A DNA stretch of 64,000 bases, taken from contig MU004246.1 in assembly GCA_010405405.1 (NCBI GenBank), positions 434,001-498,000 on the forward strand, read 5' to 3'. Within the stretch, counting starts at the first letter, position 1; each line of letters begins with the position of its first letter. The notes beneath the pieces were generated by a model. It worked only from the letters and a program-made list of their open reading frames with translations, was not told the origin of the DNA and made no database searches. The stretch comes from Microthyrium microscopicum. Lineage: Eukaryota. Positions 51,300 to 52,725 of this stretch are shown piece after piece. The position numbers were made by a program, and so were the translations under genes.

Positions 51300-52725
51300 T
51301 CATTTGCTTGACGGAAGCTTTTCGAACTCCATCTGTCCCTCATAGGGTTGTAAGTAGGCATCTTTCTTCCAGTCATGAGTTCCTTCAACAATACCAAAGT
51401 TGAAGGCCACTCGACTCTTCCTGCTTTCGTTGGCGGAACTGGTGTGCATAATGTTTCCATGCATCAGGATTAGAGTGCCTGCTTTGACCTCCAGCTTCTC
51501 ATACACATAGCCGCCGTTATCGTCTCGCTTGGGCACGGTATCATCAGTGGTGCCGTCAATCTTAGCGAACACTGGAGTATCAAGCTCAACAAACTCGGCT
51601 TTCCCTGTATCATCTCGTTTGCAGCGTCTAGTGAGCGGCTGAGATCGATGGCTTCCTGTCAATTGTCAGTATTTCGGACTTCAACGGGACGAGACGCAGG
51701 ACAATCAATGGATTTTGGAAAAGATATCTTACCTGGCGCTACCTGCAGACATCCATTTTCGATCGTCGTATCCTCCAAGGCATACCAGAAAGTGGCACAA
51801 CTGGGCGGATCAGTGAATCCGGAGCATCCATCCTGATGTGGAATCACTCTTGCGCCAACTTCAGCGGCTTTGACAATAACAAGACTCTGGGTGACTCTCG
51901 GATCCTTGTAACCTAAGGACTTTGCAATATCTCCATGGAAAGGATCTAAAACCGTCTTTCTGAAAGCTGGCATCACTCTGTGCACACCACATCCGAGGCG
52001 CTGGATACGCTGGAGCGGCTCGGCTTCGGGATTGAAAGCATCTACCAAAGCATGTCAGCAAGAGTTGTAAAGTATCTAGGTATATGTTGAAGTCACATAC
52101 GCTTTGTCAAAGTCGCAAGAGCTCGCCCTACTGGAGAGACATATGACTCTTGGCCGGGCACGTATAAATGCATCTGCACTTGATCACCTCCAACGGCCAT
52201 TGCCTTCGCAGTATCATGGACATTTTGAAGGAGAGCTAGAGTCGTCTCGGCAGAGAGTGCATCTGGAATCACAAGGTATCCATAGTTCTTCCAGAACTGA
52301 AGCTGCTCTTGGTCTAAGCCTCCTCGACATTTCGCGGAAGCTTCTCCACGTAATCTAAGAATCGGATTCGCTGTCAATTCCTCTCCCTTGAGCTCCAATG
52401 CAACGGTTTGAGTTGCCAGAATGTCGCTATTGTTTGCCGACGGGTTGGCGTTAGGGTTGTTATTGTTGTTCTGGTTGTTCAAAAGCAGTGCGAACAACAA
52501 TGGACCATCATCGTCACTTTCCATGTCAAGGTTCTCAGCCCTCTGATCGTCTTCAATAGCCACCGTTTGAGGCTCAGGTACTGCCGTTTTCAGTTCTAGT
52601 GCTATACTATCGGCAGCGAGAATATCAGAGTTGTTATTATTTTGGTTGGCTAGCAAAAGTGCCATAAGGGGACCTAGATCTCCATCGGACTTCTCGTAAG
52701 TTGTGATATGCTTGGCTTCTGCCAT
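51300..52725 (-). CDS. PhyH-family Fe(II)/2-oxoglutarate dioxygenase (PHYHD1-like) with an unusual ~136-aa repeated N-terminal extension
   Basis: EQLQFWKNYGYLVIPDAL, HQD iron motif, WYALEDTTIENGCL..APGSH and HG...HTSSANES..SR. Introns 52100..52042 and 51732..51656. Confidence 0.88.

Follow-up and report, generated by a model that had tools for sequence, protein, structure and literature searches.

A copy-variable module array fused to a clade of PHYHD1-like dioxygenases: a possible self-modifying enzyme in Microthyrium microscopicum

Why should a fungal dioxygenase of the PhyH type carry repeated peptide modules in front of its catalytic domain? The question is raised by a gene of Microthyrium microscopicum, a dothideomycete of the order Microthyriales, located in a stretch of 64,000 nucleotides of contig MU004246.1 (assembly GCA_010405405.1, positions 434,001 to 498,000 of the forward strand), which is referred to here as the window. 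The product of this gene, the PhyH-repeat protein, joins an N-terminal extension holding two homologous modules to an iron(II)/2-oxoglutarate (Fe/2OG) dioxygenase domain. The first-pass annotation of the window, made from the sequence alone, had suggested that the enzyme modifies its own repeats in the manner of RiPPs (peptides made on ribosomes and modified after translation). We tentatively favour the view that the enzyme binds and oxidises the modules to which it is fused, and the evidence is set out below together with the explanations that compete with it. The gene and its two parts are laid out as follows, in coordinates of the window:

51300..52725, minus strand: PhyH-repeat gene, whole coding region with the stop included, spliced from three exons, 429 aa
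52725..52101, 52041..51733 and 51655..51300, minus strand: exons of the PhyH-repeat gene
52100..52042 and 51732..51656, minus strand: introns of the PhyH-repeat gene, both short, GT..AG
52318..52725, minus strand: N-terminal extension, residues 1-136, no Pfam family, its start MAEAKHITTYEKSD not signal-peptide-like
51303..52335, minus strand: PHYHD1-like Fe(II)/2-oxoglutarate dioxygenase domain, residues ~131-429, interrupted by two introns, assigned from Pfam, PHYHD1 and Foldseek

Exon 1 opens at 52725 on the minus strand and runs for 208 codons to a GTATGT donor as a single open frame, which begins at M1, covers both modules and takes in ~70 residues at the start of the PhyH domain, and the spliced product of 429 residues is 100% identical, over its full length, to the public NCBI entry 'PhyH-domain-containing protein [Microthyrium microscopicum]' (P0001). 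That repeats and domain share one open frame, as the first-pass annotation had claimed, holds in the window and equally at an independent locus, the metagenome contig L001, where two modules and the start of a PhyH domain are read in one open frame (4451-5440). In-frame methionine codons are found at 1, 21, 68, 176 and onward, with no ATG between codon 68 and the domain, and a start at Met 176 would delete the nearly invariant L137, Q141, G149-L151, P154 and L165; consequently, any ATG-initiated protein with an intact domain keeps at least module 2. These observations bear on the simplest objection, namely that the extension is an artefact of annotation or assembly, or a functionless, lineage-specific duplication of low complexity. 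The Asn tracts of the modules are indeed of low complexity, and no RNA evidence was obtained: in a public run, X1, the kind of which is only guessed, one contig spans 51135-53500 unbroken with the introns retained, and it therefore looks like DNA and is silent on expression. The continuous frame at two loci and the lack of an internal ATG ahead of the domain, however, already speak against such an artefact.

The extension can be divided into the following elements:

52689..52588, minus strand: module 1, residues 13-46, SDGDLGPLMALLLANQNNNNSDILAADSIALELK
52630..52680, minus strand: module 1 block A, residues 16-32, DLGPLMALLLANQNNNN, covering positions 6-22 of the module hidden Markov model (HMM) with 10.5 bits
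52588..52629, minus strand: module 1 block B (the follower), residues 33-46, SDILAADSIALELK
52552..52569, minus strand: QTVAIE, residues 53-58, likely a block-B relic, from a shuffle test and from lone block-B elements in relatives
52518..52387, minus strand: module 2, residues 70-113, SDDDGPLLFALLLNNQNNNNNPNANPSANNSDILATQTVALELK
52456..52509, minus strand: module 2 block A, residues 73-90, DGPLLFALLLNNQNNNNN
52429..52455, minus strand: module 2 spacer, residues 91-99, PNANPSANN, the family-wide variable part, missing from module 1
52387..52428, minus strand: module 2 block B, residues 100-113, SDILATQTVALELK
52345..52365, minus strand: PILRLRG, residues 121-127, a clade-specific motif just ahead of the catalytic domain

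Upon re-reading of the minus strand, the residues and coordinates previously given for both modules, QTVAIE and the extension proved exact. The two modules are homologous, as had been proposed: the halves of the extension align locally with a score of 93, against 30.1 +/- 5.7 for shuffled sequences (0 of 1000 shuffles reach it), and an HMM built from 14 module instances in seven other proteins, none from the window, assigned 44.9 bits to module 2 and 10.5 bits to the first part of module 1. The two modules agree in amino acid at 21 positions, 16 of which are encoded by different codons, and in the Asn tracts AAC and AAT are mixed with CAA/CAG, which indicates that the duplication is old and constrained at the protein level, with no recent slippage; the divergence of synonymous sites between the copies is a further point against an artefact. 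QTVAIE matches QTVALE in five of six residues, which 13 of 20000 shufflings of the residues outside the modules equalled or bettered, and lone block-B elements are also present in the relatives P0032, P0036 and P0043, so that its reading as a partial third copy is plausible in the form of a relic of the follower. Pfam returned no family at E<=0.1 for exon 1, the ESM Atlas gave no usable feature match for residues 1-125 (structure matches at template modelling (TM) scores <=0.34), and the six-frame translation of the 64-kb window contains no second module copy.

The anatomy of the module was derived from 151 distinct instances (184 instances in 54 proteins, among which Sclerotiniaceae dominate), with modules running 34-60 residues. 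Block A follows the consensus D-G-P-L-L-[LF]-[AT]-L-L-L-x-N-Q-N-N-N, opening with an acidic-Gly-Pro segment, continuing with seven residues rich in Leu and closing with the N-Q-N-N-N tract, and block B the consensus [IV]-x-D-T-L-[DN]-P-x3-[AT]-L-E-L-K, which in Microthyrium and a few relatives reads SD[IV]L...ALEL. The blocks carry ~3-4 bits of information per position, as opposed to 0.7-1.8 bits in the spacer (HMM positions 22-32), and the variable parts of the module are this spacer, in both sequence and length, and the acidic linker between modules. The pattern of a variable core with conserved flanks that had been read from the window is thus reversed in the family: conservation is highest in the Leu-rich segment and the NQNNN tract, and it is the spacer and the linker that vary. 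Likewise, the hydrophobic G..N segment differs slightly between the two window copies, as had been noticed, but belongs to the most conserved parts family-wide. Judging from the high information content of the blocks and the diverged codons at shared residues, selection acts on the modules.

Among longer proteins, a search with exon 1 returned 30, and 28 of the 29 others belong to Botrytis, Botryotinia, Sclerotinia, Monilinia or Stromatinia or are nameless, the remaining one coming from Paramyrothecium; these matches show the same module in tandem ahead of a PhyH domain. Of the 70 proteins retrieved as closest (P0001-P0070), 55 carry 1-7 modules according to the module HMM, as do none of 67 ordinary PHYHD1-like proteins (P0071-P0137), and the repeat-bearing enzymes span Dothideo-, Leotio-, Sordario- and Lecanoromycetes. 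A species-specific duplication, which the first-pass annotation had named among the outcomes that would refute its proposal, is incompatible with a module present in four classes of Pezizomycotina; this conservation at the protein level also leaves the artefact explanation close to refuted and, in our view, very improbable. Furthermore, a phmmer search with the 136-residue extension against 1.84 billion cluster representatives, a search with a single sequence and a low-complexity query and thus of limited sensitivity, yielded 11 proteins at E<=1e-3, all of them repeat proteins. Six of these matches run into the start of a PhyH domain, and no other domain context was seen by sequence, no family scan having been made.

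Homologues were expected to differ in their number of modules, and they do, with 1-7 by HMM and up to nine of a variant repeat. Nine proteins from Botrytis cinerea isolates (including P0138, P0003, P0016 and P0140) hold 4-6 modules; one isolate displays an exact tandem duplication of a 63-aa unit, and in most isolates one module lacks the Asn tract (DGPLLLALGPKKTPTKAF). In lichen-forming fungi (metagenome-assembled Teloschistales) a block-B-like repeat, GAIPHTFGAYDHVTEVE, is found. Four lichen proteins (P0055, P0060, P0061 and P0062) carry GAIPHTFGAYDHVTEVE alone, in near-identical copies (4-9 by a loose pattern), in place of the Leu/Asn module, and in other lichen proteins the repeat is preceded by a block A of the HAPLLLGLQLANQNNN type. 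The four GAIPHTFGAYDHVTEVE-only enzymes form one subclade, which indicates that repeat type and enzyme change together. In Sclerotiniaceae, two extra copies of ITEAIPDVLEMKTQLLELHSP, an element that looks like a block-B variant, are inserted between modules and domain (e.g. P0021, residues ~185-235). Two proteins consist of repeats with no PhyH domain: P0031 of Sclerotinia nivalis (299 aa, five modules), from a genome that also encodes the fused P0026, and P0039 (173 aa, three degenerate modules). Both could be either a split precursor or a decaying duplicate.

The catalytic half of the protein contains the residues expected of an active enzyme:

51830..51838, minus strand: H277-Q-D279, the HxD of the iron triad, nearly invariant, aligned to 'PHQD' of PHYHD1
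51444..51446, minus strand: H382, likely distal iron ligand, nearly invariant, with R393 11 residues further on

In the 50-sequence alignment (A1), H277, D279, H382 and R393 are nearly invariant, and based on spacing and on human PAHX we take H382, rather than H377, to be the likely iron ligand and R393 to be the likely 2-oxoglutarate anchor. The Pfam PhyH family (PF05721) is matched by exon 2 at 1e-13 (52.5 bits) and by exon 3 at 4e-8 (34.2 bits), with a cut-off of 22. The closest solved protein is human PHYHD1 (2opw; sequence E 8e-27), residue 5 of its chain aligning to residue 138, and a Foldseek search with the AlphaFold2 (AF2) model gave E 9e-23 and a TM score of 0.77 by target against 3obz (2opw/3obz, E ~1e-22 and TM 0.77-0.78). 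By Pfam score, by iron triad and arginine, and by its double-stranded beta-helix fold, the domain is a member of the PhyH family. We know of no substrate for any PHYHD1-like enzyme.

To what kind of PHYHD1-like enzyme, then, are the modules attached? When the domain alone was used as query (E<=1e-10, best 120 of 341 proteins considered), proteins of 41-69% identity and mostly 350-750 residues were found, followed by many of ~310 residues at 35-40%. A quick tree was made from 129 domains (138 of 144 proteins matched the domain, and nine were dropped for <85% coverage). In it, a branch with a Shimodaira-Hasegawa-like approximate likelihood ratio test (SH-aLRT) value of 100 splits 60 rows from 69, and all 49 module-bearing rows are among the 60, the other 11 being the four lichen variant-repeat proteins, a single partial protein and six whose N-termini are 11-65 residues long. 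No module occurs in the 69 rows of the sister clade; 67 of them begin 2-31 residues ahead of the LxxEQLxFW helix, with exceptions of 67 and 76, in agreement with the earlier statement that ordinary PHYHD1-like enzymes start near this helix. A careful tree of 70 rows, from which 13 near-duplicates and two thirds of the outgroup were left out, gave the same separation (47 versus 23) with ultrafast bootstrap/SH-aLRT values of 100/100, and SH-aLRT was again 100 under a posterior mean site frequency (PMSF) mixture model with four long rows also removed. On the basis of these trees, the repeat-bearing enzymes form one clade. They share fold and catalytic residues with human PHYHD1 and the ~310-aa fungal PHYHD1-like proteins, to the latter of which they are 35-40% identical, whereas those proteins lack the N-terminal extension and fall in a separate clade. 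Between the two groups 19 positions are fixed differently (e.g. F to A at 204, H to C at 226, Y to G at 227, F to V at 309 and I to A at 395), and residues 350-353 form an insert of four. At several of the 19 (204, 226, 227, 309, 395 and 412) a bulky residue is exchanged for a small one. The motif [IV]L[KR]LRG stands just ahead of the domain in all members of the clade, including P0051, P0057 and P0064 with their short N-termini, and the outgroup is without it.

A selected, copy-variable array that HMMER finds only on one clade of dioxygenases suggests that array and domain work on each other, and the simplest relation between the two is that of substrate or recognition element. Structure prediction offers some indication of how they may meet. 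In the AF2 model of P0001, computed from the 50-sequence alignment, the predicted local distance difference test (pLDDT) score is mostly 85-97 in the domain and below 50 for residues 1-39 and 53-131 of the extension. The only extension strand of at least three residues is IALEL (41-45), in block B of module 1, and residues 41-50 have a mean pLDDT of 67, versus 25-46 elsewhere in 1-130; FALLL (78-82), in module 2, forms a low-confidence helix. In the single-module protein of Paramyrothecium (P0030), TIALEL (59-64) is likewise a strand, residues 61-70 have a mean pLDDT of 70 and the other parts of the extension stay below 50. The extension is thus disordered in both of the two models save for the block-B strand, and since P0030 has no other strand outside the domain, we infer that the partner of this strand must lie in the domain. 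Accordingly, block B is predicted to dock on the catalytic domain.

Such docking would also be expected if the modules were pseudo-substrates or regulators, with block B gating the surface of the catalytic domain, copy number tuning its activity and no peptide being released. In both AF2 models one block-B strand is placed against the rest of the protein, and PILRLRG resembles block B (I-A-L-E-L-K versus I-L-R-L-R-G). Nevertheless, the PILRLRG segment is itself of low pLDDT, one copy would be enough for autoinhibition, and arrays of up to 7-9 copies, as well as the repeat-only P0031, are hard to explain in this way, so that we regard a purely regulatory role as improbable.

We return to the modules as substrates of their own enzyme and may hypothesize the following course of events. 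The gene product would be a Fe(II)/2-oxoglutarate dioxygenase that resides in the cytosol and belongs to a PHYHD1-like clade of its own, and its N-terminal module array would serve the catalytic domain of the same protein. Block B would dock on that domain as an added beta-strand, and docking would bring the tethered module, by way of block B or of the Asn tract in block A, up to the iron centre, where the presented residue would be oxidised, most simply by hydroxylation of its side chain. The copies might serve in turn, either in cis or between the chains of a dimer. Proteases encoded elsewhere may subsequently excise the modified peptides, as happens in fused RiPP pathways, and a conserved SnoaL-like neighbour may perform a follow-up step. 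This neighbour lies upstream of the PhyH-repeat gene:

53398..53894, plus strand: SnoaL-like (NTF2-fold) gene, ~148 aa, assigned from weak Pfam matches and Atlas features
53398..53557, 53558..53607 and 53608..53894, plus strand: exon 1, intron (modelled) and exon 2 of the SnoaL-like gene

The SnoaL-like gene is arranged head to head with the PhyH-repeat gene and transcribed divergently from it, with 672 bp between the two starts. The Pfam matches, to SnoaL (9e-4) and SnoaL_2 (2e-3), are both below cut-offs; the Atlas feature search gave 0.94 to SnoaL clusters, and a PDB search with exon 2 returned chance-level matches only (E >=0.12). On contig L001 a SnoaL-like gene (3526-4049, minus strand; SnoaL_2 at 4.5e-5) is also found head to head with the PhyH-repeat gene, 515 bp apart, and the two SnoaL-like products are 64% identical across 59 aa and 60% identical across 97 aa. 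The PhyH-repeat protein of L001 is nearest to Alternaria P0047, with 199 of 237 aligned N-terminal residues identical, which argues that the pair of genes has been kept across orders of Dothideomycetes and may form a conserved unit of two genes that have their promoter region in common. The gene model of P0047 (Alternaria triticimaculans) skips ~54 residues, among them LRLRG and the PhyH start, which are read through in L001 4565-5440; the gap is probably a mis-called intron.

The remaining surroundings were surveyed through selected open reading frames (ORFs), namely 14 of at least 90 aa at 36-64 kb of the window, six smaller ones and 17 of at least 150 aa at 1-36 kb, together with nine ORFs of L001. 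The window encodes phospholipase D, Spt20, an Omp85/Sam50-type protein, a CAP59-type mannosyltransferase and an ankyrin protein, as well as two HET-domain proteins, an alpha/beta hydrolase, a zinc alcohol dehydrogenase and a fungal-rhodopsin-domain protein. HET-domain genes are found at 6366-7151 (plus strand) and 42621-43916 (minus strand) of the window and at 7114-8775 (plus strand) of L001, with 36% identity; this is the only other shared synteny between the loci, and it is taken as chance within a large paralogous family. Downstream of the PhyH-repeat gene, at 49859-50932 (minus strand), lies a 357-aa ORF with a Pro/Gln-rich middle, a Lys/Glu-rich C-terminal half and no Pfam family. Between this ORF and the PhyH-repeat gene, two contigs of run X1 end (50951 and 51135) in loose, Illumina-adapter-like sequence flanking a 183-base intergenic gap, probably an assembly artefact of that run. 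No cytochrome P450, polyketide synthase, nonribosomal peptide synthetase, terpene synthase or DUF3328 gene was seen among the ORFs scanned.

Several observations weigh against oxidation of the modules by their own enzyme. Most of the extension is predicted at pLDDT <50, and the position at which the strand docks is not visible in the models. The polar N-terminus reveals no signal peptide (by reading; no predictor was used), and residues 1-118 contain no dibasic KR, RR or KK site. Of the ORFs scanned at the two loci, none codes for a peptidase, a transporter, a methyltransferase or UstYa. Moreover, block A is nearly invariant across classes, which would be expected of a binding or structural motif no less than of a product, the solved Foldseek relatives are mostly titled as enzymes of small molecules or free amino acids (exceptions being PHYHD1 and a chain of a trypanosomal RNA-editing complex), and a SnoaL-like neighbour is usually tied to the tailoring of small molecules.

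Some of these points lead to the main rival explanation, in which the enzyme, perhaps with its SnoaL-like neighbour, acts on a small molecule and the modules are no substrates but multivalent motifs for docking, assembly or localisation, whose Leu-rich helices and Asn tracts would bind a partner, a membrane or each other. The nearest solved relative, PHYHD1, and the small-molecule or amino-acid oxygenases that make up most other fold matches are in line with this, as are the near invariance of block A and, among the scanned ORFs, the lack of a protease or transporter gene nearby. The isomerase PrhC is an NTF2-like protein. It shares a fungal meroterpenoid pathway with the Fe/2OG enzyme PrhA, and Fe/2OG enzymes and isomerases occur together in such pathways (PMC12006828); the conserved head-to-head SnoaL-like gene is a further point in favour. 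On the other hand, a general tag would be expected on other proteins, and the 1.84 billion representatives, within the limited sensitivity of the search, returned only repeat proteins of this family. It would be unusual for a structural tag to range from 1 to 9 copies and to vary in number between isolates, the switch in repeat type coincides with an enzyme subclade, and a polyketide synthase, nonribosomal peptide synthetase or terpene synthase is absent from the scanned ORFs at either locus. Action on a small molecule with the modules as mere adaptors is, on balance, somewhat unlikely.

How far may the preferred reading, with the modules as substrates, be taken towards a RiPP pathway? The behaviour of the copy number resembles that of a multi-core precursor, with 1-7 modules, variation between isolates and the lichen variant. 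In the boldest form of the proposal, the locus would found a new class of fungal ribosomal natural products in which the enzyme carries its own multi-core precursor, oxidises it autocatalytically with block B as recognition strand, and has modified Leu/Asn-rich peptides set free, perhaps through cuts at conserved prolines, with help from the NTF2-like partner encoded head to head. We consider this full scheme unlikely. If true, it would extend to Botrytis, Sclerotinia, Monilinia, Alternaria/Ascochyta-type and lichen-forming fungi.

Fusions of an enzyme to its substrate peptide are, to our knowledge, represented only by the fungal borosins, with a methyltransferase, and the plant burpitides, with a copper cyclase. 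The first-pass annotation had invoked the borosins; the fused layout does have a precedent, although the burpitides, with N-terminal core repeats and an enzyme domain, fit better. Fused burpitide cyclases such as SkrBURP and KjaBURP hold both in one polypeptide, and the likeness extends to tandem N-terminal repeats of varying number ahead of an oxidative, metal-dependent domain (PMC11253845). The domain, however, is a copper-dependent BURP cyclase there and a PhyH-type Fe/2OG dioxygenase here. The burpitides belong to the plant secretory pathway and have short Tyr/Trp cores, in contrast to a fungal protein with no signal peptide and Leu/Asn-rich modules of 34-60 residues, and modification and release have been demonstrated for them, whereas the PhyH-repeat system is known from its architecture alone. 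Like the PhyH-repeat protein, borosin precursors (OphMA-type) are cytosolic proteins of fungi that unite enzyme and core in a single chain, and the borosin enzyme is self-acting (PMC7878506). They differ in having an S-adenosylmethionine-dependent N-methyltransferase and one C-terminal core, instead of a dioxygenase and N-terminal tandem modules, and show no sequence relationship to the PhyH-repeat protein. As regards the chemistry, the putative Fe/2OG enzyme PoyI of the polytheonamides hydroxylates the side chains of Val and N-methyl-Asn in a ribosomal peptide (PMC9505594). Such pathways, compared here by description only, are bacterial, with enzyme and precursor encoded by separate genes and leader recognition of the nitrile hydratase-like leader peptide (NHLP) type. 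The PhyH-repeat protein thus shares with the fused precursors the joining of candidate cores and enzyme in one polypeptide and the variable number of tandem copies, and is a candidate member of their kind.

Other known systems were considered and set aside. Kex2-processed repeat precursors and the dikaritins of the ustiloxin type are also fungal and made of tandem short conserved repeats with linkers; they have a signal peptide, KR sites and UstYa/DUF3328, none of which was seen here within residues 1-118 or the scanned ORFs. Cyanobactin-like precursors, with a hypervariable core and conserved recognition flanks, present the opposite pattern, as the core columns are the most conserved here. 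For fungal amyloid signalling (HET-s, sigma, PP), where a nucleotide-binding leucine-rich repeat (NLR) protein and an effector encoded next to it share one short motif, no NLR protein appeared among the phmmer matches, and the nearby HET-domain genes are without the module. Nuclear-export or peroxisomal targeting signal (PTS) motifs were dropped, no match to a consensus being apparent by eye. A full-text literature search, which did not cover supplementary tables, found no paper on a PhyH enzyme with N-terminal peptide repeats, and none for SS1G_06266 or Bcin05g06500; expression data for BCIN_05g06500/SS1G_06266 may sit in supplementary tables. A survey of lichen RiPPs (PMC12048977) makes no mention of PhyH or dioxygenases.

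If the modules are indeed substrates of their own enzyme, the PhyH-repeat proteins would be a third kind of fused system, based on Fe/2OG, and would add oxidative chemistry to the self-modifying precursors. A PhyH domain of this clade preceded by N-terminal repeats would then serve as a rule for genome mining, by which hitherto unknown peptides could be traced in Botrytis, Sclerotinia and Monilinia and in numerous lichen fungi. If, instead, the repeats are no substrates, the family would still be new, with a copy-number-variable array exclusive to one clade of oxygenases, and the array would still provide a handle on the PHYHD1-like enzymes.

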